Below the pieces are notes generated by a model. It saw only the letters and a program-made list of their open reading frames with translations. It was not told the DNA's origin and did no database searches. From contig CAZLFV010000002.1 of the NCBI GenBank assembly GCA_964558915.1, forward strand, positions 20,501 to 84,500: a stretch of DNA of 64,000 nt, written 5' to 3'. Positions 3,847-55,870 of this stretch are shown piece by piece. The stretch is from an uncultured Eubacteriales bacterium (GTDB taxonomy: Bacteria > Acidobacteriota > Aminicenantia > Aminicenantales > UBA8522). A program made the translations under genes and the position numbers. Each line of letters starts with the position of its first letter. Within the stretch, counting starts at the first letter, position 1.

Positions 3847-4623
3847 TTAGGGCTGGAGGCTCCTCTTCCGTTCATCGACGATCCGCTGGTATTCGAGAGG
3901 ATGGAGGAGCCGGAGTTCTTTCCCGGTGATTTTTCCGTTGAGCCAGATCTTGCTCATCGGAAAGACCTCGGGGTTGAGATGGACGTTATACATGTGCCAG
4001 ATGATGACCGCCAGAAAAGCGAGCAAAGCCTCATAACCGTGGATCATCACAAGGACATCATGAATCCAGAGGGGGAAGAACCGGAGCGAAAGCTCGACGT
4101 TCCACATGAAGAACCCGCTGATGATCATCACCACCGAGCCCCAGCCAACGGCCCAGTATTCGAACTTTTCGATGAAATTATACCGGCCGAAAAGCGGCGG
4201 CTTCTCGAAAAGCCAGTAGCGGTGAGCCTCGAAGAATTTTTTAAAGACCCCCGTTTTATAAATAAGGCGGGTCAGCCCGACGTTGTGCCAAAAGAGTTCG
4301 AAGGCATCTTTGCCGTCGCGGAACTTGGGGATCATGTCTTTGAGGTTATTCTGGCCTCGGGCCGTCAGAGCCGCGGAGAGGATGTGCCAAATGAGATTCA
4401 GGATCAAAACGACCGCAGCTATCCTGTGGATGATCCCACGGATATAGAAAACTTGCTCCGTCGGGAAGAACCACTTGAAGGCCTTGAATTCGTAGAAGAA
4501 AAGAGGGAGCCCGGTGGCCATCAGCAGGAAGAACGTCCCGATTAGGAGATAATGCTGGACTCGTTCAGCGAGATTCATCCGCAGGAAGACCTCGTCGTCG
4601 GGGACAAGGGCAGAGCTATCCAC
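3847..4623 (-). CDS. Membrane dihaem b-type cytochrome, FdnI/HydC (Ni-hydrogenase cytochrome b) like
   Basis: 258 aa with four predicted TM helices. Conserved His sit in helices 1, 2 and 4 (VQHYLLIG, IIHRIAAVVLILNLIWHIL, VMIHGYEALLAFLAVIIWHMYNVH). Overlaps the upstream 11-haem gene by 8 nt, suggesting translational coupling. Confidence 0.7.
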   Translation of the reverse strand: MDSSALVPDDEVFLRMNLAERVQHYLLIGTFFLLMATGLPLFFYEFKAFKWFFPTEQVFYIRGIIHRIAAVVLILNLIWHILSAALTARGQNNLKDMIPKFRDGKDAFELFWHNVGLTRLIYKTGVFKKFFEAHRYWLFEKPPLFGRYNFIEKFEYWAVGWGSVVMIISGFFMWNVELSLRFFPLWIHDVLVMIHGYEALLAFLAVIIWHMYNVHLNPEVFPMSKIWLNGKITGKELRLLHPLEYQRIVDERKRSLQP

Positions 4624-5860
4624 GTTTTTCCCTTCTGATCATCCGTCTGAACAGGTCCGCAGCGATAAACAGGATGAAGACCGAAATAATAACCGAGATC
4701 ACGATAATGTAGATATTCTTAACGAGATGAGAGGCCTTGTATTTGGCCATGGCAATCGCCTCGGGGATCACATGAACCGGCCCCTCGGCAAAGTGGCGGC
4801 TGGCCCCGGGATGGCATTTGCCACAGGTAGCGGGCAGGTTTTCGGAGTTGATGGAAGATTTCGGGTCCGCGGAGGGCCGGATATCGTGAAAACCGTGGCA
4901 GGAAGCGCAGTTGGCCACGCGCGTCTCCCCGTATCTCGAAGCGGTTCCATGAAAGGTTTGGCTGTACGTTCTAAACCGCGATGTGAGAAAGCCGTACTCC
5001 CGGCTCAAGGCCACGTTGTCATGGCAGCGGGAACAGACCTCTGCAACCTTGGTTGTATACACCGTCGAATTCAAATCCTGGGGAGAAAGGATATTATGTT
5101 CGCTATGGCAGTCGGTGCAGACCGGAACGTCCTTGATCCCTTTGACATAGTCTTTGCCGTGCACTCCATCGAGATAGTCCCGCTGGATGCCGACGTGGCA
5201 TGTTCCACAGGTTGGGATGATGTTTTTTCGGGAGACCAGGGCGAGAGGATCGCTGACTGTCTTGATGTCATGGGCCCCGTGGCAGTTACTGCAGTTGGCT
5301 GATATTGTCAGCCCGGATTTCTTAAGGGCCCTGAAGTGAACGCTCTCCCGGTATTGACCGATAAACCCCGGTTCTTTTTTGGCCGCCACTCTCTGGAGGT
5401 GACATTTCTCGCAGGTGGAGGGGAGATTAATCGGGAATATGGTCGAGTCATATTCTGACTTGCCCTTGATGTCATGCGTCCCGTGACAATCCTTACAACT
5501 GACGGTGAGAGGGTTTGCGCCGGTCTCTGGGGCCATAAAATGGATGCTTGTCTCGAATTCCCGGCTGGCCTCCTCATGGCAACGGCTGCAGTCGATGGGT
5601 TTCAACGGAGAAGAATGGGGATAATCCCTGATTTTGGCCAGGTCGGCATGACAATCGACGCATGATATTTCTGCCCGACCGTGGCTGGAGGCCAGAAATT
5701 TTTCGTAATCCAAGAAAAGGGATTCTCCGGCTTCGGACTTGAGCTCGGCGTCTCCGTGGCAGGCAAGGCAGTCCTCGTTTGACTGGGAGGGGAAAAGGGG
5801 CGAGGCCGAGCTGAATATAATAAAGATAGCCCCGAGAATAACGGCTTTGCCTTGACCCAT
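4616..5860 (-). CDS. Undecahaem c-type cytochrome with signal peptide and C-terminal TM anchor
   Basis: 11 CxxCH motifs: CLACH, CVDCH, CSRCH, CKDCH, CEKCH, CSNCH, CGTCH, CTDCH, CSRCH, CASCH, CGKCH. Shows a repeated CxxCHGxHDI paired-motif pattern. N-terminal signal peptide; C-terminal hydrophobic helix IYIIVISVIISVFILFIAADLF. Confidence 0.9.
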   Translation of the reverse strand: MGQGKAVILGAIFIIFSSASPLFPSQSNEDCLACHGDAELKSEAGESLFLDYEKFLASSHGRAEISCVDCHADLAKIRDYPHSSPLKPIDCSRCHEEASREFETSIHFMAPETGANPLTVSCKDCHGTHDIKGKSEYDSTIFPINLPSTCEKCHLQRVAAKKEPGFIGQYRESVHFRALKKSGLTISANCSNCHGAHDIKTVSDPLALVSRKNIIPTCGTCHVGIQRDYLDGVHGKDYVKGIKDVPVCTDCHSEHNILSPQDLNSTVYTTKVAEVCSRCHDNVALSREYGFLTSRFRTYSQTFHGTASRYGETRVANCASCHGFHDIRPSADPKSSINSENLPATCGKCHPGASRHFAEGPVHVIPEAIAMAKYKASHLVKNIYIIVISVIISVFILFIAADLFRRMIRREKRG

Positions 5861-5864
5861 GGCG

Positions 5865-7127
5865 CTACTTTTTCAAAAGGCTTATTCTTTTGACGAAGCC
5901 GGGAATGAACCAGAGCACAGTGACGACGAGAACGGCGATGAGCAGGACAAGGAGGATCCTTTGAATATAAAACAGGGAAGGCGGGTTTTTTTGAGCGGCG
6001 CCGATGTGAATCTTGGCCGTGGCGATCTTTTCGGGCATATTCGGATGGCAGCTCGGCTGTCCGCAGGTCTTCCGCAGGTTGGCCGGGTTGATTTTGGACA
6101 GGGGATCAGAAGCCGGCCGGATGTCATGAGCGCCATGGCAGCTTGTACAATTGGCTGCGGCTTTATAGCCGAACCCGACGGCGATCCCGTGCAGGCTGTC
6201 GATGAACGTAGGTATCCGGTCTTCGGGCACCCCATATTTCTGCATGATTTCCGGCCGGGCGTGGCAGACCGAGCAGGTATCGATGACTTTGCTGAAAGAA
6301 GCAGGCGAACCGGTTTCTTTGGGTGAGGCGATGCCGTGCTCTCCGTGGCAGTCGACACAGAGCGGAGCATCGACATTCCCAACCAGGGCCTGCTGGCCGT
6401 GGAGGCTCTGCTTGTACTCGCCAAAAATGAGCTCGTGGCAGCGGCCGCAGGTCTGAGGCTGCTTGGCCATGATATGGGGCTCGCCGACGCCTTTGATGTT
6501 GTGGACGCCATGGCAGTCGGTGCAGACGGCGGCGAACTGGACAAGCCCTTTTTCAAAAAGGGCCTGGCCGTGAACGCTCTTCATGTATTCGTGATAAGGC
6601 ATTTCGCTGTGAATGTTGTACTTGATGACGACGTGCATATCTTCATGACAGGCCGAGCAGGTGAGGGGGATGTTCTTCCTGTTGACCGAGGATTCGGGGT
6701 TTCTGGCAGGCCGGATATTGTGCTTTCCGTGACAATCCCAGCACCTGGCCACCTCGCTGACTCCTCTTTCAAGGTAGGCCCGGCCGTGGACGCTGTCAGG
6801 GTAAGAAAGAGGAGTCTGTCCCTCCCCGGCCAGGCCGCTTTCACGATGACAGACGGCCGTGCAATTGACATCCGGAAGTTTCTTTTTATGGGGAAGATCT
6901 CCTTCTCGCTCTTCGGGCCGGACGAGATGGCAATCTGTGCAAGCGAGGAAAGCGTGCGCTGACCCGAGAAAATTTTTTTCATTAATCCTGAGGCTTTCGC
7001 TGACTTCCGCTTGGGAGCCGTGGCAGGCCAGGCACCGGGCGTTCACAGAGACGGTCTTTTCTGGGCCGGCCCAAAGGAACCCGATAGCGACGAGAAGAGA
7101 TAAAATGGTTACTTCAGGTTTTCGCAT
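5865..7127 (-). CDS. Undecahaem c-type cytochrome, paralog of 4616-5860, with C-terminal TM anchor
   Basis: 9 canonical CxxCH plus CTAVCH (CX3CH, nt 6846-6863) and CGQPSCH (CX4CH, nt 6045-6065). Both variants sit where the paralog has canonical sites. Same signal-peptide and C-terminal anchor architecture (ILLVLLIAVLVVTVLWFIPGF). Confidence 0.9.
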   Translation of the reverse strand: MRKPEVTILSLLVAIGFLWAGPEKTVSVNARCLACHGSQAEVSESLRINEKNFLGSAHAFLACTDCHLVRPEEREGDLPHKKKLPDVNCTAVCHRESGLAGEGQTPLSYPDSVHGRAYLERGVSEVARCWDCHGKHNIRPARNPESSVNRKNIPLTCSACHEDMHVVIKYNIHSEMPYHEYMKSVHGQALFEKGLVQFAAVCTDCHGVHNIKGVGEPHIMAKQPQTCGRCHELIFGEYKQSLHGQQALVGNVDAPLCVDCHGEHGIASPKETGSPASFSKVIDTCSVCHARPEIMQKYGVPEDRIPTFIDSLHGIAVGFGYKAAANCTSCHGAHDIRPASDPLSKINPANLRKTCGQPSCHPNMPEKIATAKIHIGAAQKNPPSLFYIQRILLVLLIAVLVVTVLWFIPGFVKRISLLKK

Positions 7128-7153
7128 CCAAAAAATGAACGATAAACACCGGT

Positions 7154-7678
7154 CTATTTTGTCGCCGGTTTGTCGTGTTTGATCTTTTCCCAGGCTGCTG
7201 CATAATCGAACGCGATGCCGTGGGCGTTCTCATGGCAGGTCAGGCAGTACTTTTTGGCAGCATCCGCAGACTCATACAAGATGAGGCCGTTCTTCTGGGC
7301 CAGGGCTCTGTCTTTCATGATGGAGAGTTTTTTGTATTCGCTTCCCGGGCCGTGGCAAACCTCGCAGGTGTCGCCTTCCGCCTTGAGTTCAGGAGCCTTC
7401 TCGAAGAGAGGCGCGTGGCATTTAAGACACTGGGGGCTTTCAGCCGGGTTCTCGACTCCGGCGGCTTGGGCTTTCGGTGCGGCTTCAGGAGAGCTGAGCG
7501 CGGCGAAGGACACGGAATGCTTGGACTTCTGCCAGATCGGATGCTGCTGGCCCTGGATTTCCGTTTTGTGGCAGATCGCGCACTTGGCCGACCCCACGTA
7601 GGAAAAAGTCTGGGCGAACAGGCTGATGAGCAAAACCGCGGCAACGATGACGACAAGCAAGACGACCTTTTTCATCAT
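7154..7678 (-). CDS. Tetrahaem c-type cytochrome (cytochrome c554-like family)
   Basis: CAICH, CLKCH, CEVCH, CLTCH. The motif GSAKCAICHKTEIQGQQHPIWQKSKH is typical of the c554-like family. I place the start at MMKKVVLL, preceded by GGGAGG. The ORF-track start at 7747 overlaps the promoter -35 box. Confidence 0.85.
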   Translation of the reverse strand: MMKKVVLLVVIVAAVLLISLFAQTFSYVGSAKCAICHKTEIQGQQHPIWQKSKHSVSFAALSSPEAAPKAQAAGVENPAESPQCLKCHAPLFEKAPELKAEGDTCEVCHGPGSEYKKLSIMKDRALAQKNGLILYESADAAKKYCLTCHENAHGIAFDYAAAWEKIKHDKPATK

Positions 7679-7718
7679 TCCTCCCGGCAAATCATGGATT
7701 ATTCCACAAAGAAGCCCC

Positions 7719-7747
7719 ATTTTAGAAAACTCCCAAAGGATTGTCAA
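7719..7747 (-). promoter_or_regulatory. Sigma70-type promoter P3 for the distal cytochrome module
   Basis: Minus strand reads TTGACA (7747-7742), a 17-nt spacer, then TAAAAT (7724-7719). It lies in the AT-rich 123-nt gap between the nonahaem and tetrahaem genes. Confidence 0.6.
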
Positions 7748-7801
7748 TATTTTTTACTATAAAAACGATAATTTTTATAAAAATGATAGAAATAATAGGG
7801 T

Positions 7802-9085
7802 TTAGATTGAATCGGAGCGGACGTCGCGGATCTTAAGATAGAGGGCCAGGGCGAGCAGGAAGATAAAGACCGTAGCGATAACCAGGCCGGTCTTTCGAAA
7901 CTTTGCTTCTTTCAGGGCGGCGCCGCCGAGCGCCTTGACCTCGGCGATGACTGTGTTCCCTTCGCCGAGCTTCGCTTCCATGTCCTCGAGCGCCAGCCCG
8001 TGAGTCAGGTTCCGGACGAGGATCAGGGTCGTGGAGGCCTCCTGGAGCTTGAACCGGGGCTCGCTGACCTCGACGCCCTGTTTTTCAGCGCGTTCGAGAA
8101 TGCCTTCGGCGTCTCGAAATGCAGATACATAATCCGAGAGTTTCCGGCTGATCTCGACTCCGGTTTCATAAGGCTTTGTCCCGGTGTCATGGCACTGGCT
8201 GCAGACATCGTTGCTTCCTCCGGCGAGCATCTCGTCGGTGGGGATCAGGATCTTGTGGTTGCCGTGGCAGGCCTCGCATTCGGAAATCCCCAGCCCGTCG
8301 AATGCCACCTTGTGCGGGCTTTGGCTGAAGAGGTCTCCCGCGCTCGGATGGCACTGCCGGCAGACAAAAGCGACTGACGTCACTTGGGGCGGCGCAGCGC
8401 CGTGATTTCCATGGCAGTCATTGCAGACGGGCGCTGAGAGGTCCTTTTTATCGAAAAGGGCAGCGGCATGGACGCTCTGCTTGTAATCGCTGACTTGGTT
8501 GACGGGAAGGCCGTAGGGTTTCATCCCGTCCTGGCTCGAATGGCAGCGGCCGCAAGTCTCAGGGACGTTCCAGGCGAAAGTCGAGGACTTGGGGAAATTA
8601 GAGGCCTGGATTCCATGAACGCCATGGCAGTCTGTGCAGACGGCAACATTCGCATCGCCCTTTCGCAGGAGCTCGCCGTGCTTGCTCGTCCAATAGGCCT
8701 GGAGCTGGTCCACGCGGACGTTGGGATTGAAGCGCCTCATGTACTCGGAATTGGAATGGCAGGAGCCGCAAGCTTCCGGCACCTTGACCTTGCCGGGCGC
8801 TCCCTTGAAGGATTTGTCCTTGGCCAGCTCGATATCGTCCTCGAGGGGATTGCCGCCGTGGCAGTCCTGGCAGCCCAGGCCGAACTGCCGATGAATATCC
8901 GTCGCGAACCCGTCCGCAGGAGCGCGCAGGCTCTGGTCCTCCAATTCCCTGTGGCATTCCAAGCAGGAGTTTTTTTGTCCGGAGAGCGATAGAGGAAGGG
9001 TGAGCAGCAGACTGAGCAGAAGAACTGAGAACAGCTTTGGCTGCTTCCTTTTTTTGTTCTGCTCTTTATTTTTTTTCACTTTCAA
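7802..9085 (-). CDS. Nonahaem c-type cytochrome with C-terminal helical region and TM anchor
   Basis: CLECH, CQDCH, CGSCH, CTDCH, CGRCH, CNDCH, CRQCH, CEACH, CSQCH. Signal peptide LFSVLLLSLLLTLPLSLSG. C-terminal TM helix GLVIATVFIFLLALALYL. Confidence 0.9.
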   Translation of the reverse strand: MKVKKNKEQNKKRKQPKLFSVLLLSLLLTLPLSLSGQKNSCLECHRELEDQSLRAPADGFATDIHRQFGLGCQDCHGGNPLEDDIELAKDKSFKGAPGKVKVPEACGSCHSNSEYMRRFNPNVRVDQLQAYWTSKHGELLRKGDANVAVCTDCHGVHGIQASNFPKSSTFAWNVPETCGRCHSSQDGMKPYGLPVNQVSDYKQSVHAAALFDKKDLSAPVCNDCHGNHGAAPPQVTSVAFVCRQCHPSAGDLFSQSPHKVAFDGLGISECEACHGNHKILIPTDEMLAGGSNDVCSQCHDTGTKPYETGVEISRKLSDYVSAFRDAEGILERAEKQGVEVSEPRFKLQEASTTLILVRNLTHGLALEDMEAKLGEGNTVIAEVKALGGAALKEAKFRKTGLVIATVFIFLLALALYLKIRDVRSDSI

Positions 9086-9102
9086 AATTTCTTGGTTTTC
9101 TT

Positions 9103-10176: not shown

Positions 10177-10177
10177 T

Positions 10178-10603
10178 CTAAGATTTCTTCGAGACAAAAA
10201 TATCGCCGCTCCCTACCTCGATTTCGTAAGCCTCCAAGGGGCGCGGCGGCGGACCGGATATGACATTCCCGGCTAGGTCAAACCGGCCGTTGTGACAGGG
10301 GCAATAGAGGGTGCCGGTGTCGCTTTCGTAGCTCACGGTGCAGGTCAGGTGAGTGCACACGGCGGAAAAAGCCCGGAGCTGACCGTCGGCAGTATTGATT
10401 AACAGCGCGGGAGAGGACCCGAATTTGAACAGCTTGGCGGAGTTGGGCGCCAGCTCACCCACTTTGGCGGCGGCGATTTTCCTGGCCACGGCTTCAGCCT
10501 GGCGCGGAGGAATGAGATACCGGACGATGGGATAAAGAAGGGAAGTCGCAGTCCCCAGGAGAGACCCTCCGAGAAAGAAATTGACGAACTTTCGCCTCTT
10601 CAT
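10178..10603 (-). CDS. Rieske 2Fe-2S iron-sulfur subunit
   Basis: The two Rieske boxes CTHLTC and CPCHNGRF are present. N-terminal MKRRKFVNFF is twin-arginine-like and is followed by a TM helix. Confidence 0.9.
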   Translation of the reverse strand: MKRRKFVNFFLGGSLLGTATSLLYPIVRYLIPPRQAEAVARKIAAAKVGELAPNSAKLFKFGSSPALLINTADGQLRAFSAVCTHLTCTVSYESDTGTLYCPCHNGRFDLAGNVISGPPPRPLEAYEIEVGSGDIFVSKKS

Positions 10604-10607
10604 TTTC

Positions 10608-12593
10608 CTATTTTTCTCCGATAGATTTTACCTTTTGTTTGAGTTTTGTCAACAGCCCTTCAATGAACTGAGAGTTGTGGACCGAGAGGCTGCCGTCATT
10701 TTCGAGCATCCTGAGCATCTCCGCAATTTCAGCCAGTTTGGCCCGGTCGTACTCACCCAGGTCGAGCCTTTTCTTTTCCTCCATGCCGGCGAGGAGCGAT
10801 TCCCGCTGCTTTTTATAGGCATCCTGCCATTTTTCAAATATCTTCTTGTAGCTCTCCTCATGGCAATTCGAGCAGGTGGAGCTTCCGGCCGGACGCAATT
10901 GTCCTTTTTCCTGGCTGTGGCAATCAGCGCAAGCGACGTTGGCCTCGGCCATCATGTCCTTGGGGACTTCCCAAGCGGCCAGAGTCCCCCCCGCATAGAG
11001 TGTCTTTTGCAGGACATGGCACCTTCCACAGTCTGTCTTGGGATCCTGGTGGTGGCAAGCGGCGCACTGTTTTTTGGAGCCGATGAACTCCCCGTGTTTT
11101 TTCGCGTTGGAATGGCAGGTCGAACACTCCATTTTCTGGCTGACGACATGCGTTTTATGGGGAAAGGAAAGCCCGTAGAGCTGGCTGTTGATCTCTTCGA
11201 TCCCGGCATGGCACTGGGAGCATTGCGAGGGAATGTCTTGTGTTTTGGGCAGGAATCTTTCGGGCGTGTAAGAGGAACCGATGAGCTGGAGCGCTTCCTC
11301 CATATAGGCAAAGGCAGCCTGAAGCAGTTCCTGCGAGTAGGCCATGTTATGGACGCTCTTGCCTCTCTCAACGACGTCGATATTGAAAGCCGCATCGTCC
11401 AGCAACGACCCAGCCTTTTCCCGATGGGGGACCTTGCTCATTCTTACTTCCTGGGAAGACCTTTGATAGATCCTCCTGATCTGGTTCAGCCTTTTCTCAG
11501 TCGAGACCTGCCAGTTCCGGAGGATTCGGGCGAATCCTGTTCCGTGACAGGATTCGCAGGCCTGCTCCTTGGAGATCATGGTCTCGCTCTTGACCAGCTT
11601 GCCGCCTGCTTCCTCATGAAACATGTGGCAGCCCTTGCAGCTCAGTCCTTTTTCCAGCATGACATTGGGCAGCGCGTGGGCAACGCCTTTTCCGCCTTCC
11701 CCTGTGTAGAGGATCTTTTGGGCCTGATGAAACCCCGTATGGCAGGTCCGGCAATCGGCGATTGTTTCGATATCTTTAACGATTTTGTGCTGGATCTGGA
11801 GATGGCATTGGTTGCACTCAATCTTATGGGCTGTGATATGAGTCGAATGGATCAAATCTGTATCAGAATATTGATCCAGCCTTTCTTTCTCAAAATGGCA
11901 CTTGTAGCAGTTTTCGCGAGGGACGGCTCCGTCGCCGACAATGACCTGACTGTGGCACTTATCGCAGTTGAAGCCCTTTTCAAATACGAGAGTGTGGTCG
12001 AACCGGGATCCCTTTTCTGATATCAAATCCTGCTGGATGTGGCAGTGGGAGCACTCGCCGATCTGGGGGTAGTGTTCGCTCTTTTTAAAATGGCAGATAA
12101 AACATGTCGATTCTGTGACAGTTATGTGCTCCCCTTGAACGATCTGGGAATGGCAGCTTGTGCAGCGGAGCTTCTTTCCTCTTTTCAAATCCTCGAAGTG
12201 GATCTTGTGGTCGAAGACGACCGTCTTGAATTCCACCCGGCCCTGGAGAAGCCTGGTGTCGTGGCAGCCCGGACGGAGGCAGCTTTCATCCGGAATCTCT
12301 GCCCAGGGTCTGGACTTGAGGTAAAGCTTGCTCCAATACCGGCCCAGCTGCATCAGCCCCTCCACTTTTGCCCTGAAGAAAGATTTCAACCCTGGAGGAT
12401 AATGGCAGACGCTGCACTGGATGGTGCCGTGGGAAGAGGTTTTCCAGCTCTGATAGAAGGGCTTCATGTAGTGGCAGGTCGAGCAGAACCGGGATTGGGA
12501 CGTGATTTCTGCCGCGGCGATGAAAAGAAGCAGGAAAAACGCAAGACCACAAAGGAATATCAGACTCCTTTTCTTGGTGATCCGTATCTTCAT
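10608..12593 (-). CDS. 18-haem c-type cytochrome with N-terminal NapC/NirT-type membrane anchor
   Basis: N-terminal TM helix followed by SRFCSTCHYMKPFYQSWKTSSH, a NapC/NirT-like signature. 17 CxxCH plus CLRPGCH (CX4CH, nt 12261-12281) in 661 aa. Confidence 0.85.
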   Translation of the reverse strand: MKIRITKKRSLIFLCGLAFFLLLFIAAAEITSQSRFCSTCHYMKPFYQSWKTSSHGTIQCSVCHYPPGLKSFFRAKVEGLMQLGRYWSKLYLKSRPWAEIPDESCLRPGCHDTRLLQGRVEFKTVVFDHKIHFEDLKRGKKLRCTSCHSQIVQGEHITVTESTCFICHFKKSEHYPQIGECSHCHIQQDLISEKGSRFDHTLVFEKGFNCDKCHSQVIVGDGAVPRENCYKCHFEKERLDQYSDTDLIHSTHITAHKIECNQCHLQIQHKIVKDIETIADCRTCHTGFHQAQKILYTGEGGKGVAHALPNVMLEKGLSCKGCHMFHEEAGGKLVKSETMISKEQACESCHGTGFARILRNWQVSTEKRLNQIRRIYQRSSQEVRMSKVPHREKAGSLLDDAAFNIDVVERGKSVHNMAYSQELLQAAFAYMEEALQLIGSSYTPERFLPKTQDIPSQCSQCHAGIEEINSQLYGLSFPHKTHVVSQKMECSTCHSNAKKHGEFIGSKKQCAACHHQDPKTDCGRCHVLQKTLYAGGTLAAWEVPKDMMAEANVACADCHSQEKGQLRPAGSSTCSNCHEESYKKIFEKWQDAYKKQRESLLAGMEEKKRLDLGEYDRAKLAEIAEMLRMLENDGSLSVHNSQFIEGLLTKLKQKVKSIGEK

Positions 12594-12638
12594 TCAATAT
12601 CGCTTTCTTCGATGGTCCGGTTGAGTCTGCGGCTGCTC

Positions 12639-13457
12639 TTAAGCATAGCTATGCAACCCCGCCAGCAGGTAATTCACGCCAAAGTAGGTGAACAGGGCGG
12701 CGAGAAATCCGATGATGGCGATGGCGGCCGACCGCCGGCCCTTCCAGCCCATGACGATCCGGGTGTGGAGATACAGGGCAAAGACAAACCAAGTAATCAG
12801 GCTCCAGACCTCTTTCGGGTCCCAGCTCCAATAACTTCCCCAAGCCTTGTAGGCCCAAACCATGCCGAAGACAAGGCCGCCTAGGGTGAAGAGAGGAAAA
12901 CCGATGGCAATAGAGCGGTAGCTGATCGAGTCCAGTTTTTCCGCTGTGAGCGCTGATTTCGCCGCTTTCCCTCTTCGTTCCTTGGCGTCGGCCGCAAGGT
13001 ACATGATGCTCGTAATGAAAGCGATGGCAAAAAAGGCTTCGCCGATTAGGGTAACAGAGACATGTAGCCAGAGCCAGTAACTCTGCAGCGCCGGAACTAG
13101 AGGAGTCGTCTCTTTCGGCATGAGAGGCGAAGACGCCAAAGCCATAAGGGCGATGACAATGAGCATCAGGTAGCCGGCCGGTCTTTTGACCTTGTATTTT
13201 GCCTCAATAATAACAAAGGCCAGGATGGACGCCCAGGCCAGAAAAGAGAGGGACTCGTACATGTTGGTGAAAGGCGCATGGCCGCTTTCCACAGTCCTCA
13301 AAATGAGGGCCAGCGTATGGACGAGGAGGCCGGTCAAAGCCACAGAGAAACCAATCCTGGCCCTGTTTTCCTTATTGGAGAAAAGATGGGAGAAATAGAA
13401 GGCAGCCGCTAAAGCATAAAGGATGAAGGCGAGCAGAAAAAAAGTGGATTCGGTCAT
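12639..13457 (-). CDS. ccsA: System II cytochrome c biogenesis protein CcsA/ResC (haem export and ligation)
   Basis: Polytopic membrane protein with the WWD-type motif WGSYWSWDPKEVWSLITW. 4-nt overlap with resB. Confidence 0.9.
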   Translation of the reverse strand: MTESTFFLLAFILYALAAAFYFSHLFSNKENRARIGFSVALTGLLVHTLALILRTVESGHAPFTNMYESLSFLAWASILAFVIIEAKYKVKRPAGYLMLIVIALMALASSPLMPKETTPLVPALQSYWLWLHVSVTLIGEAFFAIAFITSIMYLAADAKERRGKAAKSALTAEKLDSISYRSIAIGFPLFTLGGLVFGMVWAYKAWGSYWSWDPKEVWSLITWFVFALYLHTRIVMGWKGRRSAAIAIIGFLAALFTYFGVNYLLAGLHSYA

Positions 13458-14809
13458 TTGCGTATCCTGAGAGAATTGATGATGCTTTCAAATTCCGTTT
13501 GAAAGGCCTCCCGGGCTTTGACGGAAATTCCGCCGGCCGTGACCTCTGTCTTCCCCTGGCTGTCCTCTAAAATAATCTTTAACTCTCGTGGCGGCCAGTA
13601 AAAGGCCAGGCCAAGCCCCACCATCAGCAGGACGCAGCCGACCCAGATGAGCGAGACGCCCGGGTCCTTGGCCACGTGAATAACTGAGTAGCTCGGCGCC
13701 CGGACATCTTTGAGTTCGAGAGTGATATCTGCTTCCTTGGCGCCGGAGTGGAGACGCGAAAAATCCGGGAACCTGGCGAAAATCCAGCCGGAGAACACCT
13801 TTTCTGTTCCTATCCAGCCTTCGATGAAGGCCGCTGGATTATTGGGCTCGAGCGAGCGGCTGGCCGGCTGGTTTTTTTCGTCCAGGACGAAATCAGGGAT
13901 GAACCGGACGGCGTTGAGCACAAGGGATTCACCGTTCAGGGCCGTTTTCTCGCCGATTTTCAGCCAGGCCTTTTTAAGGTAACTTGGGTCCGGCTTTTTC
14001 TTCACCCAGACCTCGAGCGACGGATGGTCCCAATCCGAACCGTAGCCGCTTTGATAAAACACGTAGCCTCGATGATTGAGGGGAGAGTTGACTTCGACTG
14101 TTTTTTGGAAGAGGGGCTTTCCGGCCTCAGTCACAGTGAGGAGGCTTTTCCAATCCTTGACGCTTCCGTTAGGATAGTATTCCGTCACGAATTGATCCAG
14201 CCGGACAGTAAAATCCGCCCCCGGGACTGAAAGAGTCCGGCCTTCGGTAAAGGTGAGGTCCTGGCGGAAACTGCCGAGCCCGCTGGCAATTCCGCCGGCC
14301 AAGATCACCAGGAGGCCCAAGTGGACGACATCAGACCCGAACCAGCCGAGGACCCTCTTCCGGGCGGTCAGGCAAGATCTATTATCGGTTCTGACTTCCC
14401 TGAGCCGGTAGCGCCGGCGGCGGAGTTCCTTCTTGACCATTTCTCTGGTTTCGGCGGCGGACAAACCGACTTTGAACTTGTCCTTGATTTTCAAAGCGAG
14501 AATGTTCTTGGGTTCGGTCTCCAACTTGGTCTGGAAGGTCCGCCGGAATTTGGGAAAGAGCCTTTCGAGCGTGCAGACGATGATATTCACGGCAAAGAGC
14601 GCAAGCAGGCCGACAAACCAGAAGGACTGATACAGCCTGGTGAACTGCAGGCGCTCAAGAAGCGCCCCGAGCTGGCCATAGCGGACAAGATATTCCTGGG
14701 TGCTTCTTCCCTGGGGGATTAGCGTTCCGACGATCGAGGCGCAGATGAGGATAATCAGTAGGGTGATGGCCACCCGGACCGAAGTGAAAAAATTGAGCAG
14801 GGCTTTCAT
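13454..14809 (-). CDS. resB: System II cytochrome c biogenesis protein ResB/Ccs1
   Basis: 451 aa. N-terminal MKALLNFFTSVRVAITLLIILICASIVGTLIPQG is a typical ResB start. Large soluble loop and C-terminal TM helix; coupled to ccsA. Confidence 0.85.
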   Translation of the reverse strand: MKALLNFFTSVRVAITLLIILICASIVGTLIPQGRSTQEYLVRYGQLGALLERLQFTRLYQSFWFVGLLALFAVNIIVCTLERLFPKFRRTFQTKLETEPKNILALKIKDKFKVGLSAAETREMVKKELRRRRYRLREVRTDNRSCLTARKRVLGWFGSDVVHLGLLVILAGGIASGLGSFRQDLTFTEGRTLSVPGADFTVRLDQFVTEYYPNGSVKDWKSLLTVTEAGKPLFQKTVEVNSPLNHRGYVFYQSGYGSDWDHPSLEVWVKKKPDPSYLKKAWLKIGEKTALNGESLVLNAVRFIPDFVLDEKNQPASRSLEPNNPAAFIEGWIGTEKVFSGWIFARFPDFSRLHSGAKEADITLELKDVRAPSYSVIHVAKDPGVSLIWVGCVLLMVGLGLAFYWPPRELKIILEDSQGKTEVTAGGISVKAREAFQTEFESIINSLRIRK

Positions 14810-14879
14810 GCCGCATCCTTGAGTCGTCTGTTTAATAACTACTAATTATATCGGAATACTCAATTTTTGGCCATCCTCT

Positions 14880-16115
14880 CTAGGTGCGGCCTTTACGCAT
14901 CTCCGCTGCGAGAGTCTGGATCTCTGTGAGCGACCGCCTCATTTCGCTCCAACCGTACCAGAGAGCGTAGTCCGGATTGGCATGAAAAGTCCCCTGAAAA
15001 GAGCGCATCCGGTGTTCGAGAAACATGACGAAGAGCTTCTGCTCCACTTCGGTTGGCGCGTCATGGAAAGTCAGAAGGTCGGGAAACCGATAGGCGTAGC
15101 TTGCCGGTTTCGGCAGGATGCCGTCCTGGTAAAGGGAGGCGACTTCTCGGATGGCCTCGGCCATCAGATGGTCGACTTCTTTGATCATCTCATCGCCTTT
15201 TTTGAGCTCTCCTTTGGCAAAATTCGCGCTATGGCAACTGGTGCAAATCCCGATCATCTTGTCCCGTTCTTTCTGCCAGGCTTCCTGGGTCAGACGGGCG
15301 ACGTCGGCCGCCTTGACGACATCAAGCCTTGGCGTGGGGTTACCGCTCGGGTCCAGAACGCCGAGAGCCTGAAGAATTGTGGCTCTGTCTGCAGCCCATT
15401 GCCTGTCCTCAGGCATCGGCAGCCGCACGGCCAGAAATCCCCAGGCAGTCCGGACTTCGTGGTTTTTCTCCTGCATATGGCAGGTCTGGCAGGAGGGCGC
15501 GGCAGTTGATTCGGGGAGGATTTTATTTTGTTTCAAGAGAAAGCGGACGCCGTGCTTGGAAGCGGAGTACATCTCCCATTGAGGATGATCGAAGCCCATA
15601 TGGCAGGTCTGGCAGGCTTGGGGCTGCCGGGCTTCGGTGACGGAAAAAATATGCCGCGTATGGCAGGCGTCGCAAGAGGCCCGGCCGAACCCTGCGCCGG
15701 CCTTATCGAGCTCCGCTATTTCCGCCTCTGTTTTCAGCCCGATCTTGTGGCATCCGCCACAGCCCTTCATTCCTTCCATCATTGCCACGGGCTGAGCGTG
15801 CGCTGTCGGCATGGCTTTCATCGCCGCCCAGGCCAGGGCGTGCTTGCCCCGCTTGAACTGGTTCACCTGGTCTTCGTGACAGGCAGCGCATGTTTCTGGC
15901 GTAGGGATCCCGGCCTTGGCAAAGTCCAAGGCGGTCTTGTGTCCTTCGCCGTGGCAAATAGAACAGCCCACCTCATTTTTGCTGTGCTCGCTCAGCAGCC
16001 AATCGCTGACGATGTAGGGTGTGGCCTTTTTATGACACTCCATACATTCCTGACCAAGGAGCGCCGGCGCAACAAGAAAACTCAAGAAAATCCCCACGAC
16101 GATTCTTCGCTTCAT
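14880..16115 (-). CDS. Octahaem cytochrome c of the hydroxylamine oxidoreductase (HAO) family
   Basis: 8 CxxCH: CMECH, CSICH, CAACH, CGGCH, CDACH, CQTCH, CQTCH, CTSCH. HAO-family spacing and landmarks are present: CDACHTRH, CQTCHMGFDHPQWEMYSASKHG, and a C-terminal helical domain after haem 8. Has a signal peptide. Confidence 0.8.
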   Translation of the reverse strand: MKRRIVVGIFLSFLVAPALLGQECMECHKKATPYIVSDWLLSEHSKNEVGCSICHGEGHKTALDFAKAGIPTPETCAACHEDQVNQFKRGKHALAWAAMKAMPTAHAQPVAMMEGMKGCGGCHKIGLKTEAEIAELDKAGAGFGRASCDACHTRHIFSVTEARQPQACQTCHMGFDHPQWEMYSASKHGVRFLLKQNKILPESTAAPSCQTCHMQEKNHEVRTAWGFLAVRLPMPEDRQWAADRATILQALGVLDPSGNPTPRLDVVKAADVARLTQEAWQKERDKMIGICTSCHSANFAKGELKKGDEMIKEVDHLMAEAIREVASLYQDGILPKPASYAYRFPDLLTFHDAPTEVEQKLFVMFLEHRMRSFQGTFHANPDYALWYGWSEMRRSLTEIQTLAAEMRKGRT

Positions 16116-16167
16116 GATGCACCTCCTCGACGGGGATAGAAGCCGCTGCTTGAAATTGGCGGATTAC

Positions 16168-16196
16168 TCTATAGCATCGCCCGCAGGAAAAGTCAA
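16168..16196 (-). promoter_or_regulatory. Sigma70-type promoter P2 for the HAO / maturation / Rieske-cyt b module
   Basis: Minus strand reads TTGACT (16196-16191), a 17-nt spacer, then TATAGA (16173-16168). It lies about 45 nt upstream of a GAGGAGG ribosome-binding site and the ATG at 16115. Confidence 0.5.
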
Positions 16197-16218
16197 AAAA
16201 TTGGCGGTAAGCATCTTC

Positions 16219-16584
16219 ATTTCCGTAAGCATTCTGCTTTAGAATAGGGTCCTGCCACGACTTCCCCGCCAGGGGGAGGAGGCGAGGGATGATGTGGTGA
16301 GAAGTCCGTATGAGCGACGAGCGGGCGTCGCGAGGCATCGAAGATGCCGTGGCGATCTCAGTTTGAGATTGCTTCGCTGTCGCTCGCAATGACAATCTTG
16401 ATTTGCGCAAGCAAATCAGGGGGTTCCAAGGGGGATGGCCCCTTTGGTCGCAGAGCAAAGCTCGAGAAGGGGAGGCAGGGAGCGCAGCGAACGTTGGAAG
16501 GGGGAACGCGGAGCGTTCTCCCTCCAAGAAACCAATGTGGGAAATCGCAGCTTGACTTCGAACCACATCTCCCGAGCCTCGTCG
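16219..16584. repeat. MITE-like structured interspersed repeat, copy A (left arm, core and a ~140-bp internal insertion; right arm missing)
   Basis: 16272-16396 matches 35829-35953 with 4 mismatches in 125 nt. 16537-16584 matches 35964-36011. 16397-16536 is present only in this copy. The left arm 16219-16262 is about 81% identical to the reverse complement of the right arm of copy B. Confidence 0.8.
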
Positions 16585-16638
16585 GGGCCCCCCGCCCCGT
16601 CGCCCTCTGCTTATCATCTCTAATTACAGAAATGGATC

Positions 16639-18978: not shown

Positions 18979-18984
18979 TTCCTC

Positions 18985-20850
18985 TTAGTTCCAGCGGTAG
19001 CCAAAGGAGAACTCGAAGATGTTGGCCGCATAATTGTTGGATCCGGACAGTTTTTCGAGGTAGTCGACGCATCTGTAGCCGACCTGAGCCATGTAGCCGG
19101 CAGTAAAAGAATACTGGATGTACGCCTTGAGCGTGGCCCGGCGGATTTCCCAGGATCCGGCGTTGGAGAAGTAGTTGGCACAGCCGCCAAAGGTCCAGTT
19201 CTGGTTGAGGTCATATGAGAGCAGCACATCCAGCAGGCTCGATCCCTGCAGGTAAGAGATCGTCCAGAGGAATGACCCGCTAGGCGTGGTCCAATAAGGA
19301 GGAAATTCGACCATCCGGTCGGCCCGGCGTCTGGCCCGAATATAGGCAAACCCTCCGGAAACATTGAACCGGCCGGCGTGGTACCCGGCGCGCAGGCTGA
19401 ATTGGTTTCCGGACGCCTTCCAGGTATTTTCATCGAATACATCTGTCTCGGAGTTGTTCCAGATGTAGGACCCGGAGAAGCTCCAAGCCTTGACTTGATA
19501 TTTTGCCGTGATCCGGAGCCTATCAAAGCAGCTCGGGGAAATGAGGGCGAAGGGATTCTCGACCTGGCTGTGCTCGTAGTCAAGGGTTAGCTTAAGTACT
19601 CGCGAGATATCCCATCTGAGATTGCCGAAGGCGCCATTGCTTGCCGTGTCGAATTCATATTCGGCCGTTTCCAGGTTTTTGAGAGTCCGTTCCTCAAAAT
19701 GATAGCCGAGGGTTAAGGCCAAGTAGGGAGTGAAGGAGTACTGAACGCCTGCGTTGAATCCCAGAGTTTCATATCCAAAATCCTCTGTGTCGCCGCCTTG
19801 GTCGCCAGTCATAGCGCCGGTTTGGTCAAAGTTGTGAAAACGGAAGGCGGCCATAACCGTGAGCTTGCTTGACAAGGTGTATGTGGCATCCAACTCGTAG
19901 AGCTGGATGTTACGGGAGAAGTCTCCCTTGCCGGTATAGCTGTAGGCGAAATTTCTATTCAGGTAGCTGACCCCGAGTGCTCGCTCGGAATAATCAAGGT
20001 CCATGTCGAGCGCCGATAATTGGACCGATGCAGTCAAGAAGAATCTGTCCGTCGGCCTCGCATTGAACCAGAAAGAGCTGGTTACGGATTTCAAATCGTA
20101 GGGCTGATTCAGGAAAAAATAATAGAGTGAGGCGGGGTTCTCGGCCTCCGGCCCGCCGTCCACGTACCCGGGCAGGAAGAGGCTGTTCTGGTTCTTATAC
20201 TTCAGGAATTTTTCTTCTGCCACAAAGGAATAGCGGTTGAAATGGAGGTTCAAACCGACAGCGATCTCTTTCGACTCCTCCTGGACTGGCTTGTCCATCT
20301 CGAATTCCATCCGGTTGACGTTGAGGCTAGTTGTGCCCGCCCCCTTTTTAGTAAACCGGTCGAAGCTCAGATAAAAGTCGGCTTGCTTGGCCAGGGAGAT
20401 TCTGGCCAAGCCGCTATCCCTGACCCGGTCAAAATCGAAACGGTGAAGGTCATAAAGCCCGCCATCGCCCATATTCAGGTCATTATAGAAATAGTTCGCT
20501 TTTCTCCTGTCGTACTGCAATAGATACTTGCCATACTTCTGGAGCGATGCGGAGATAGTTTCGAAGGGATCTCCACCCAGGTTGAACATCCGGAGGTTCA
20601 GCCGGTCAAAAACTTTTTTGAGGTCGTTCTGCGGAGAATAGACCAGGTTGAAACTATAAAGCCGGGCGCCGCCGGAGAGATTGTAATCTTCTTTATAGTT
20701 GGAGACAGCGCCGGGCCCGCTGAGGTTTACGGAGCGAAACCCAAGGAGGAAATCGCCCGAAAAGTCACTGTTTTGGGCTCCCAGAGAGAGAGACAGGAAG
20801 AACGCCAGAACAACACCCAGGAATGCCGTGATTGTCTTTCTGCTGTTCAT
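18985..20850 (-). CDS. Outer-membrane beta-barrel protein, putative MtrB/PioB-like porin of a porin-cytochrome complex
   Basis: Signal peptide MNSRKTITAFLGVVLAFFLSLSLGAQ, preceded by AGGAGA. About 600 aa of alternating amphipathic beta-strand pattern. The terminal FEFSFGYRWN is an OMP-like aromatic-rich C-terminus. Flanked by decahaem genes on both sides. Confidence 0.65.
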   Translation of the reverse strand: MNSRKTITAFLGVVLAFFLSLSLGAQNSDFSGDFLLGFRSVNLSGPGAVSNYKEDYNLSGGARLYSFNLVYSPQNDLKKVFDRLNLRMFNLGGDPFETISASLQKYGKYLLQYDRRKANYFYNDLNMGDGGLYDLHRFDFDRVRDSGLARISLAKQADFYLSFDRFTKKGAGTTSLNVNRMEFEMDKPVQEESKEIAVGLNLHFNRYSFVAEEKFLKYKNQNSLFLPGYVDGGPEAENPASLYYFFLNQPYDLKSVTSSFWFNARPTDRFFLTASVQLSALDMDLDYSERALGVSYLNRNFAYSYTGKGDFSRNIQLYELDATYTLSSKLTVMAAFRFHNFDQTGAMTGDQGGDTEDFGYETLGFNAGVQYSFTPYLALTLGYHFEERTLKNLETAEYEFDTASNGAFGNLRWDISRVLKLTLDYEHSQVENPFALISPSCFDRLRITAKYQVKAWSFSGSYIWNNSETDVFDENTWKASGNQFSLRAGYHAGRFNVSGGFAYIRARRRADRMVEFPPYWTTPSGSFLWTISYLQGSSLLDVLLSYDLNQNWTFGGCANYFSNAGSWEIRRATLKAYIQYSFTAGYMAQVGYRCVDYLEKLSGSNNYAANIFEFSFGYRWN

Positions 20851-20860
20851 CACTGTTCTC

Positions 20861-21756
20861 CTATTTGAGGAATTTCTTGTCCAGGTTCGAACCATGAATC
20901 GAGGAATGACAGGTCACGCAATTGGTCCCCTGAGAAGTGAAACTGCCGTGCCAGGCCGGCGCCTCAGAGTGACAGCTGAAGCACAGGTCGGCGATGTTCT
21001 GCTCAGTCAACATATGGCGGTTGGGCGACCCATGGGCCTGGTGGCAGATATTGCAGCCCTCGACCCGGGAGGCCTGGTGTTCATGGAGAAAAGGACCCCC
21101 TTTGTCGGTGTGGCAGCGGATGCACTCCTCTTGTTTGAACCCGGCCAGTCGTATCCGGAGAGCCGGTTCATGCGGATTGTGGCAGGAAGTACAGGTTACA
21201 ATTCCTTCCTGAAGCCGGTGCCGCCTATTCAGCTGGAACTCGGCGAAGACGTCCTCGTGGCAGCGCGCGCAATCTGTGTTTTTCTGAGTTTTGAGAAGCG
21301 GAGAAGCAGCAACCTCGCCGTGAATGTGGTGGCAGGTGGTGCAATCGAGCGAGGCTTTCCCATGCGGGCTGTTGGTGAACCGGGGGCTGTCTTTTTCATG
21401 ACAGGTCAGGCATTTCTGCGTTTTTGCGCTGGCCGGGTTGGAGGCGGCAAAAGAGAATACGCCCGCCTTGCCTCCTTCGTCCACGTGTTGTTCCGCGCTC
21501 CCGTGGCAGGCCGTGCAGGTCGGTTCGGTCAAGCCGGCATGGGGCCGGGAGGAGAATCTCTTGACCACTTCTTCGTGACAAGTGCCGCACGTTTGCGTGT
21601 CTTTCGCCTGGGCTGTCGGCTTGGCCGCGACCCCAACGCGACGACGGCGGCGAATGCGGCCATGAGGCCGATCGTCGAGAGCGGGGCAGTCCTTAATTTT
21701 CTTTTCCTTTGTGCTGACAACTCCAACCTGCTTGAGAAACTCTTCGTCCATCTCAT
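20861..21756 (-). CDS. MtrA/DmsE-like periplasmic decahaem c-type cytochrome, apparently frameshifted near the 5' end
   Basis: 10 CxxCH in about 240 aa: CGTCH, CTACH, CLTCH, CTTCH, CARCH, CTSCH, CIRCH, CNICH, CFSCH, CVTCH. The haem frame (ATG 21751) has no hydrophobic leader. The overlapping frame from ATG 21756 encodes KRKLRTAPLSTIGLMAAFAAVVALG. Confidence 0.8.
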
Positions 21757-21799
21757 CTCTTTATTGACTAAACTTATCTATTCTATAAATTCCATAGGT

Positions 21800-21828
21800 T
21801 TTATAATAAATGGCGCGGAAAATGTCAA
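21800..21828 (-). promoter_or_regulatory. Sigma70-type promoter P1 for the porin-cytochrome module
   Basis: Minus strand reads TTGACA (21828-21823), a 17-nt spacer, then TATAAA (21805-21800). It lies about 45 nt upstream of the first ATG. Confidence 0.6.
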
Positions 21829-22383: not shown

Positions 22384-22555
22384 CTCCTTAATAACAAGTT
22401 CGCAGCGATGATGATAAAAACCCTGCGCAACACAAGTATTTTATTTGAATTTCTCAGTTATTTCAACATAATTTTATAGATTCTATAAGAATTATAAGAA
22501 AATATAACCCCGGCCCACAACGGAGCCCCGTCGTTCGTCGGAGCACCGCTTCGGC

Positions 22556-35477: not shown

Positions 35478-35490
35478 GCGCTAATCTATA

Positions 35491-50331: not shown

Positions 50332-50377
50332 GCTTATATTATATCAAATCTATAGAAAAAATAGGAAACAGCCGGAT

Positions 50378-55595: not shown

Positions 55596-55870
<275 letters not shown>

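Follow-up and report, generated by a model that had tools for sequence, protein, structure and literature searches.

A conserved multihaem cytochrome locus of mosaic structure in Candidatus Aminicenantes, with a frameshifted mtrA-like gene

Introduction

Clusters that encode quinol-side membrane proteins together with multihaem cytochromes have been described before. In Geobacter sulfurreducens, the extHIJKL-MNOPQS cluster links a porin-like protein, a Rieske protein, a cytochrome b and multihaem cytochromes (PMC5877670). Geobacter CbcBA combines a multihaem cytochrome anchored by a C-terminal transmembrane helix with a four-helix dihaem cytochrome b of the hydrogenase/formate dehydrogenase type, encoded next to it, and several quinol oxidases are used in Geobacter at different acceptor potentials (bioRxiv 10.1101/2021.04.15.440034). 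The Kuste4569-4574 genes of Kuenenia stuttgartiensis encode a b6-like Rieske/cytochrome b complex, multihaem cytochromes and a protein similar to hydroxylamine oxidoreductase (HAO) that was proposed to reduce nitrite (PMC12954380). The PCC3 and PCC4 clusters of iron oxidisers bring together genes for a porin, for multihaem cytochromes of the periplasm and the cell exterior, and for a redox protein of the inner membrane (PMC5566968), and in A. ferrooxidans petI-resBC the System II maturation genes stand beside a Rieske/cytochrome b operon whose bc1 complex runs in reverse (PMC2754497). Here we describe a locus of co-oriented respiratory genes (A to N, in the order of transcription) in a stretch of 64,000 nucleotides, called the window below, which is positions 20,501 to 84,500 of contig CAZLFV010000002.1 (assembly GCA_964558915.1) from an uncultured bacterium of the Aminicenantes lineage.

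Aminicenantes are abundant in anoxic sediments and are usually described as fermenters. We found no description of this locus in Aminicenantes in the open-access literature, and a 2026 peat preprint on gene clusters for extracellular electron transfer in Acidobacteriota mentions neither Aminicenantes nor Rieske, ResB or HAO.

Results

Comparison with described systems

Genes A and B have the same decahaem-then-porin order as Shewanella MtrCAB (6R2Q) and MtoAB/PioAB, and A encodes 10 haems in ~250 mature residues. In contrast to MtrCAB, no surface cytochrome of the MtrC/OmcA type is encoded here; the third gene, C, specifies a helical tandem decahaem protein without a lipobox. The locus also departs from MtrCAB and MtoAB in that B lies under the Pfam thresholds, A lies under the DmsE-family cut-off, and A is frameshifted. 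The best fold match of C is OcwA of Thermincola potens (6I5B), from which C differs by its tandem five-haem duplication, its EF-hand-like loops and its diderm host.

The order multihaem-Rieske-cytochrome b-small tetrahaem in the Geobacter ext cluster, whose extMNOPQS part we take to be the Cbc6 complex, parallels G-H-I-(J)-K. However, I scores 206 bits against the ExtP model (cut-off 290), the same score as a plain cytochrome b6, and the c-type cytochromes of the locus are not orthologous to ExtM and ExtN (E values of only 1e-3 to 8e-7, short of the equivalog cut-offs). In addition, ExtI is a small phosphate-porin-like protein, not an MtrB-like one, and the ext cluster lacks HAO, ResB/CcsA and an FdnI-type unit. 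M and N share the layout of CbcBA, the two being compared by architecture only; CbcA has 7 haems whereas M has 11, N seemingly holds all four ligand His, and here a paralogue, L, precedes M.

With Kuste4569-4574 the locus shares a b6-like cytochrome b that includes a subunit-IV-like part. In both, a multihaem cytochrome c replaces cytochrome f, and an octahaem protein of the HAO-like kind is encoded alongside. The locus differs in having no NAD(P) oxidoreductase subunit, in the fusion of cytochrome b and subunit IV, in its non-anammox host, and in its linkage to MtrAB and a CbcBA-like unit. The protein families of PCC3/PCC4 and petI-resBC are other than those found here, and none of these clusters combines three quinol-side modules. 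With ext, PCC3/PCC4, Kuste4569-4574 and petI-resBC as linked precedents, the assertion in an initial reading made from the DNA letters (the sequence-only reading) that no described system joins such parts was too strong. Each module has a described relative; it is their combination in one conserved locus that is unusual and apparently undescribed. Also unusual are the 18-haem NrfH-anchored protein G, the placing of a nonahaem protein (J) where cytochrome f would be, and the pairing of MtrAB with an OcwA-like tandem protein.

Gene content and haem motifs

Counting in the translated genes gave 78 CXXCH, two CX4CH and one CX3CH motifs, which exactly reproduces the total of 81 reported in the sequence-only reading. 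CXXCH occurs 10 times each in A and C, eight times in D, nine in J, four in K and 11 in M; G has 17 CXXCH and one CX4CH, and L has nine CXXCH, one CX3CH and one CX4CH. Because the Cys and His residues of the variant motifs are kept while the inner residues vary (in 80 of 80 orthologues of G, and in 27 of 27 and 25 of 25 of L), the three variants are regarded as genuine haem sites. Against the 78 CXXCH motifs in the minus-strand open reading frames (ORFs) of the locus, none was present in the 36,767 amino acids of other window ORFs of at least 100 residues, and the clustering is far above chance expectation.

Family, PDB-sequence and fold comparisons upheld nearly all of the gene identities proposed earlier (Table 1). 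All three classes of quinol-interacting membrane modules that had been listed are present (G; H-I-J; M-N with L), as is a porin-cytochrome outer-membrane module physically linked to inner-membrane genes. Other statements needed correction. Fifteen co-oriented genes had been placed within 3847-21828; this interval has 14 real genes, and the fifteenth is the Rrf2 gene (X), which lies outside it. A 195-residue ORF at 16030-16617 was considered as the fifteenth gene and rejected as spurious, having no family match and lying inside a repeat insertion. The genes had been called tightly packed, which is true of most gaps (-20 to +70 bp) but not of the 523-bp gap between C and D. The word island is only descriptive, because the G+C content of the locus equals that of its flanks; a mobile island was ruled out on this ground and because relatives also keep the Rrf2 and carA genes that flank it. 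The repeat in the C-D spacer probably represents a non-autonomous mobile element of small size; part of it recurs at 35829-36013, with 97% identity over 125 nt.

Table 1. Positions of genes, promoter-like sites and repeats in the window, with the evidence for each
Feature	Position	Strand	Evidence or description
A-N gene run	3847-21751	minus	14 co-oriented respiratory genes, ~18 kb
X, Rrf2-family transcription regulator	21919..22383	minus	Pfam Rrf2 2.6e-33
A, MtrA-like periplasmic decahaem cytochrome	20861..21720	minus	10 CXXCH; MtrA 6r2q_A E = 1.4e-25
B, outer-membrane beta-barrel of MtrB/PioB kind, 621 aa	18985..20850	minus	N-terminal signal peptide, fold match
C, tandem OcwA/NrfA-like decahaem, 775 aa	16639..18966	minus	10 CXXCH, signal peptide, fold match
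Repeat, MITE-like (miniature inverted-repeat transposable element), ~420 bp	16215..16635	minus	insertion in C-D spacer; absent from relative L084
D, periplasmic HAO-family octahaem cytochrome	14880..16115	minus	8 CXXCH; PF13447 3.6e-28
E, ResB (CcsB), System II maturation	13454..14809	minus	PF05140 1.5e-83, 281.7 bits
F, CcsA/ResC haem lyase subunit	12639..13457	minus	TIGR03144 268.8 bits vs 187.6 cut-off
G, 18-haem cytochrome, NapC/NrfH-type anchor	10608..12593	minus	PF03264 residues 11-83, 33.3 bits vs 24.1
H, Rieske [2Fe-2S] protein, b6f (PetC) type	10178..10603	minus	PF00355 8e-16; PetC transmembrane anchor
I, cytochrome b, b6-like + subunit-IV-like fused, 7 transmembrane helices	9103..10197	minus	PF00033 3.6e-48; PF00032
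J, nonahaem cytochrome	7802..9085	minus	9 CXXCH; signal peptide; C-terminal transmembrane helix 401-419
K, small c554-like tetrahaem cytochrome	7154..7678	minus	4 CXXCH; PF13435 4.6e-10
L, 11-haem cytochrome, C-terminal transmembrane anchor	5865..7127	minus	motif count, transmembrane prediction
M, 11-haem cytochrome, C-terminal transmembrane anchor	4616..5860	minus	CbcA architecture
N, FdnI/HydC-type dihaem cytochrome b	3847..4623	minus	PF01292 1e-11; CbcB architecture
X promoter-like site	22466-22438	minus	just downstream of palindrome 22483-22497
P1, TTGACA-N17-TATAAA	21800..21828	minus	promoter-like, upstream of A
P2, TTGACT-N17-TATAGA	16168..16196	minus	promoter-like, upstream of D
P3, TTGACA-N17-TAAAAT	7719-7747	minus	promoter-like, upstream of K
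Palindrome TTATAATTCTTATAG	22483..22497	minus	just upstream of X promoter-like site
Palindrome CTATGGAATTTATAG	21783..21797	minus	between P1 -10 box and A; candidate operator
Palindrome TTATCGTTTTTATAG	7757-7771	minus	precedes P3

Conservation and mosaic structure

Homologues of B, C and G were found overwhelmingly in metagenome-assembled genomes of Candidatus Aminicenantes; for G alone there were 1996, mostly from this lineage. A scan with a G profile, limited to one genome per GTDB species, yielded 80 related loci (handles beginning with L), each with up to 10 kb on either side. Presence of each gene was counted in the 45 or 46 loci with enough flank. E-F (with E upstream of G) was present in 40 of 46, H-I-J in 38 of 45 and K in 42 of 45, and H, I and J were gained or lost as a block. 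M-N occurred in 27 of 45 loci, D in 23 of 46 and A-B-C in 18 of 46. In 15 of these 18 loci A-B-C precedes the core in the same orientation, and in the other three it is divergent.

Among the 37 loci flanked on each side by 9 kb or more, five have the full colinear order A to N; L003 and L005, with slightly shorter flanks, have it as well. An Rrf2 gene often precedes such full-order loci, and carA follows in two of them. Even species that share only 50-65% protein identity have the genes in the same order and orientation. Compared with an 84%-identical relative (L084), the ratio of nonsynonymous to synonymous substitution rates (Ka/Ks) was 0.06-0.17 for X and A to I (0.13 for A). As judged from these comparisons, the locus is a vertically maintained chromosomal mosaic in which a near-universal core (ResB-CcsA-18-haem-Rieske-cytochrome b-nonahaem-tetrahaem) is joined by accessory modules, namely MtrAB with C, the HAO-family gene and the last module. 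The full order recurs in at least five other species. The modules are nevertheless separable, and the locus is not the one fixed unit for which it had been taken.

The outer-membrane module

With ten CXXCH motifs in ~300 residues and sequence homology to MtrA, the product of A has the features of the MtrA/MtoA/PioA/DmsE group; its match to TIGR03508 (DmsE family; 1.4e-52) reached 178.8 bits, under the cut-off of 192.2. B follows after a 10-bp gap. A profile of the B family had no match among PDB sequences, and its likeness to MtrB emerged from fold comparison only. An AlphaFold2 (AF2) model of B, built on 50 homologues, has a pLDDT (predicted local distance difference test) of 90 and about 26-27 long strands. 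Its top fold match is MtrB (6r2q_B; E = 1.2e-16, template-modelling (TM) score 0.69), followed by TonB-dependent receptors at TM scores of 0.50 or less. The Pfam matches of B itself are sub-threshold and none is to PF11854; however, 17 of 50 family members match PF11854 (MtrB_PioB) at E <= 0.01, and some homologues carry the NCBI name MtrB/PioB family. A large predicted barrel of ~26 strands adjoining a decahaem gene is what characterises the MtrB/PioB fold, and the modelled fold thus supports the earlier, explicitly refutable view of B as an outer-membrane protein. An exact look-up of the 636-residue form of the barrel ORF returned no record because the true start is Met16; the 621-residue form is on record.

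The product of C is an internal duplication with halves that are 40% identical (repeat E = 5e-73). The AF2 model (pLDDT 77) consists of two helical pentahaem modules and a ~70-residue disordered linker. Among PDB sequences, C had no relative, the only match being a chance one to DnaK. By fold, the best match is OcwA (6i5b; probability 1.0, E = 4e-3, TM score 0.22-0.34, identity 17%), then NrfA, and as these are the sole meaningful fold matches, C is not an MtrC. It is mostly helical with short strands, lacks the Greek-key beta-barrel domains and the lipoprotein signal of MtrC/OmcA, and scores 29.5 bits against PF22113, under the 30-bit cut-off. The alignment of homologues shows a signal peptide with no conserved Cys or lipobox in the signal region. 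The duplicated decahaem of the initial description is a tandem OcwA/NrfA-like protein and not an MtrC-like one. EF-hand-like loops that fit the calcium-binding consensus occur in each half of C (DxNxNGxxDxxE at residues 302-313 and 706-717; DYDGDG at 251-260 and 656-665) and are invariant or nearly so across 46 homologues.

In one species (L002), A and B are 63% identical to those of the window, whereas C to N are 82-93% identical, a sign that lineages of Aminicenantes may have exchanged the mtrAB pair.

A frameshift in the mtrA-like gene

A single-nucleotide deletion was detected in the G-run at 21631-21634 of gene A, within the signal-peptide region and ahead of the first haem motif. The in-frame ORF (20861-21751) begins MDEEFLK and has no hydrophobic N-terminus or signal peptide, while the signal peptide (including LRTAPLSTIGLMAAFAAVVALG) is encoded upstream in a different frame. 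The haem domain of A thus has no Sec signal peptide in its own frame. Its start is a TTG at 21720-21718 behind a weakened ribosome-binding site (ribosome-binding-like sequence and start, 21718-21733); the Shine-Dalgarno-like sequence is AAGGAGG in L081-L083 and AAGCAGG in the window alone.

In the relative L084/L086 the run reads GGGGG, one G longer than in the window (GGGG), and signal peptide and haem domain are in one frame. Gene A is intact in L084/L086, in L002 and in about 25 orthologues of other species, all with in-frame signal peptides. The four-G run is common to four assemblies, the window and L081-L083, which derive from different samples and assemblers and represent one population. 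An assembly error was judged unlikely, given that the same run appears in four assemblies, one of which has a separate substitution. A long-standing pseudogene was ruled out by the Ka/Ks of 0.13 and the ten intact haem motifs; for the same reasons the lesion must be recent or is somehow bypassed.

An unexported cytochrome c cannot receive haem, and MtrA of this strain should therefore be non-functional as encoded. Because the deletion splits the signal peptide from the haem domain, the outer-membrane branch in this genome is probably inactive or was very recently lost. The complete conduit proposed in the sequence-only reading fails in this genome, since the product of A is not exportable as encoded.

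Quinol-side modules, maturation genes and soluble cytochromes

The product of D scores 99 bits against PF13447 (cut-off 21.9), and its matches to HAO-family proteins in the PDB (5e-34 to 7e-24) place it in this family. The best of them is 6h5l (E = 5e-34), annotated as similar to hydroxylamine oxidoreductase, which we take to be the reducing Kuenenia HAO-like protein Kustc0458. The cross-link Tyr467 of Nitrosomonas europaea HAO aligns with a Leu in D, which is probably of the reductive, non-cross-linked type. This assignment is not secure because D has Tyr at positions -2 and +2 of the aligned site and a misalignment is possible.

E and F overlap by 4 bp and encode a ResB protein adjoining a CcsA-type WWD protein, the arrangement typical of System II (PF01578, 180.2 bits). 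G has a transmembrane helix at residues 10-28 and a CXXCHxM first-haem motif, CSTCHYM being invariant in 10 homologues, and matches NrfH (2j7a_C) at E = 1.6e-5. Its likeness to NapC/NirT/NrfH extends over the first ~80 residues only, the tetrahaem core being replaced by 18 haems.

H and I bear the hallmarks of a Rieske/cytochrome b pair: the motif CTH-X15-CPCH in H, and His98/112, His199/214 and PEWY at 283 in I, which matches cytochromes b and b6 in the PDB at about 1e-48. A haem ci in I was considered and finds no evidence in a manual comparison with cytochrome b6, in which Cys52 is off the position of b6 Cys35. The topology of J is that of cytochrome f/c1.

K is a candidate periplasmic shuttle; its match to the model of Nitrosomonas c554 (5e-10) is under the cut-off of that model. 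L and M are paralogues (35% identity, E = 8e-70). N lies under the cut-off of TIGR01583 and matches FdnI (1kqf_C) at E = 6.6e-5, with His24, His66, His195 and His210 in transmembrane helices. An extra trio of distant J-like, M-like and N-like genes (25-31% identity) was observed in or beside the locus of many relatives (e.g. L013, L015, L016, L019, L022, L026, L048); by its predicted architecture, this trio is a further unit of the CbcBA kind.

Regulator, promoters and a shared palindrome

X has a Cys cluster (C92/C97/C104/C110) and scores under the cut-offs of the NCBIfam CymR, IscR and NsrR models. In 15 of the 46 related loci whose flanks are long enough, its gene is found upstream in the same orientation, and X is the probable regulator of the locus.

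The three promoter-like sites proposed earlier are present where they had been placed, and all recur in other species. P1 is common to the close relatives L084/L086 and to L002, with a similar form in several other species. P2 is conserved between the window and L084, matches exactly in four of 12 other species, and has a TATAGAAT-like -10 box in several more. P3 is found in conserved form in 11 of the 13 species that were compared. Additional matches to the promoter consensus precede E, H and X.

The window has five copies of a 15-bp inverted repeat (YTAT-N6-TATAG), where 0.10 would be expected. Three of them are on the coding strand, a short way upstream of X, A and K (Table 1). It is also found upstream of A in six other species and of K in eight. 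The related loci contain 80 copies in 1.28 Mb. Of these, 43 are on the same strand, and 26 of the 43 precede X, A, E, G or K by no more than 350 nt. This distribution suggests that the palindrome is a shared operator and that the modules belong to one regulon. Fully independent regulation of the modules had been named as an outcome that could refute the proposal; the shared palindrome at X, A and K argues otherwise.

The remaining two copies in the window are at 35486-35500, upstream of an unannotated 220-residue ORF (34815-35477), and at 50350-50364, between peptidase-like and histidine kinase genes.

Other genes in the window

Genes at 22647-27190 on the plus strand, divergent from the Rrf2 gene, encode 2-oxoacid:ferredoxin oxidoreductase subunits and an ADP-forming acetyl-CoA synthetase-like protein, the names being taken from gene calls in the collinear L081. 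A signal recognition particle RNA of the bacterial large type was identified at 55601-55867 (plus strand). An ORF of 764 residues at 60352-62646 (minus strand) has a weak match to a multicopper-oxidase domain (PF07731, 2e-10); multicopper oxidases are linked to metal redox chemistry in other bacteria.

Discussion

On balance, we lean slightly towards the view that these genes form an anaerobic respiratory locus that would pass electrons from membrane quinols into a haem-dense periplasmic network and, in the intact form of the locus, across the outer membrane. By analogy with Geobacter, menaquinol may be oxidised by whichever unit fits the potential of the acceptor. G would do so non-electrogenically, in the manner of CymA/NrfH. 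H-I-J would act in Q-cycle style, with J in place of cytochrome f and a need for a higher-potential acceptor, and (L)M-N would oxidise menaquinol as CbcBA does. K and the anchored multihaem cytochromes could then carry electrons over the periplasm to two outlets. In one, MtrA inside MtrB would deliver electrons via C to an extracellular acceptor, e.g. Fe(III), Mn(IV) or humics; in the other, D would reduce a soluble nitrogen oxide. X would co-regulate the modules.

Several observations weigh against this view. C, which is without a lipobox and whose modelled fold is not of the MtrC type, may be periplasmic, and the conduit would then be like MtoAB/PioAB, without a surface partner. About 60% of related loci lack the outer-membrane module, and the conserved core must therefore have a job that is independent of it. 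In this genome, mtrA is frameshifted. The sequence fixes no direction of electron flow. A Rieske/cytochrome b complex requires an acceptor of fairly high potential, for which nitrogen oxides or Mn(IV) are better candidates than ferric oxides. Moreover, that X binds the palindrome we infer from its position alone.

The strongest rival is a periplasmic nitrogen-oxide reductase chain formed by the core (D, E-F, G, H-I-J and K), with MtrAB-C as an optional add-on. Electrons would run from quinol through the NapC-type protein or Rieske/cytochrome b to the c554-like K and on to D, which would act on nitrite, hydroxylamine or nitric oxide; this is the hydroxylamine-quinone redox module of ammonia oxidisers in reverse. 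Such a chain had been mentioned before only as a possible refutation; the combination of HAO-like, c554-like and NapC-anchored proteins fits it too. We consider it unlikely, yet it is a serious rival because the core lives on without A-B-C in about 60% of loci and because D, K and G echo the HAO-c554-cM552 triad: D is closest to 6h5l and has the cross-link Tyr replaced at the aligned position, K matches c554 models, and G bears a NapC/NrfH anchor. Outside Aminicenantes, D-G-H-I-J was found without MtrAB in L074. Kuste4569-4574 likewise joins a b6-like Rieske/cytochrome b, multihaem cytochromes and an HAO-like putative nitrite reducer (PMC12954380), and the nitric oxide sensor NsrR belongs to the Rrf2 regulators. 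However, D is itself accessory, being present in half as many loci as were counted (23 of 46) when G and K are near-universal, and the Tyr on either side of the aligned cross-link site leaves its reductive assignment insecure. The 73 haems outside D are far beyond the need of a reductase chain for a soluble substrate, and it also counts against this rival that A-B-C, where present, mostly (15 of 18 loci) precedes the core in the same orientation.

An improbable alternative is that electrons flow inwards, with MtrAB working like MtoAB/PioAB and drawing on Fe(II) or a partner cell as the electron source. The periplasmic carrier would be C or K, and the electrons would go downhill to D, in nitrite-dependent iron oxidation, or uphill via Rieske/cytochrome b to quinone. 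Genes for a decahaem protein, a porin and a carrier follow one another in the same way in pioABC and in the Sideroxydans mtoA-mtoB-mtoD(-cymA) cluster. Clusters of the MtoAB/PioAB type centre on a periplasmic decahaem cytochrome and an outer-membrane porin (PMC5566968), and the resBC genes of A. ferrooxidans adjoin the reverse-running petI bc1 operon (PMC2754497). The absence of a lipoprotein signal from C is consistent with uptake, and FeGenie found iron-oxidation-type genes in an Aminicenantes genome, though of the cyc2/sulfocyanin kind. Against this, nothing in the sequence sets the direction of flow, and the presence of three quinol-side modules in parallel resembles the situation in Geobacter, a metal reducer with multiple quinol oxidases. 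The nearest fold of C is OcwA, whose PDB title is 'Outer Cell Wall Cytochrome', and Aminicenantes are regarded as organotrophic anaerobes.

It is very improbable that the locus is a set of neighbouring cytochrome genes that do unrelated work, with the 81-haem conduit an artefact of reading them jointly. Each of A-B-C, D, H-I-J and L-M-N is missing in some species, and A-B-C can lie on the other strand, but order and orientation are kept at 50-65% protein identity with short gaps or overlaps, a palindrome recurs at three promoters, and all tested genes are under purifying selection.

Returning to the respiratory locus that we favour, we tentatively propose, as a possibility short of an even chance, that Aminicenantes own a lineage-wide, undescribed respiratory supercluster. 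It would comprise a b6-type complex flanked by 27 haems (those of G and J), with J where cytochrome f would be, and two more quinol oxidases. In ~40% of species, electrons would be delivered to an MtrAB conduit with a new kind of tandem OcwA/NrfA-like decahaem cytochrome as its cap, and the whole would be under one Rrf2 regulator with a CTAT-N7-ATAG operator. ResB/CcsA may be needed for the CX3CH and CX4CH motifs.

If the locus does function as suggested, a globally common uncultured lineage of sediments and the subsurface could respire minerals, humics or nitrogen oxides, not just ferment, and its modelled role in carbon, iron and nitrogen cycling would change. Parts that are rarely combined stand side by side here: a Rieske/cytochrome b complex in which a nonahaem cytochrome stands in for cytochrome f, an 18-haem NrfH-anchored protein, a unit of CbcBA architecture, and MtrAB with a non-MtrC partner. 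The frameshifted mtrA may capture the loss of the outer-membrane branch while it is under way in this population. The presence and absence of modules over ~80 species provides a natural comparison, from which the outlet of each inner-membrane module could be learned. The main value of the locus lies in its implications for the physiology of Aminicenantes and in the natural comparative system that it offers.

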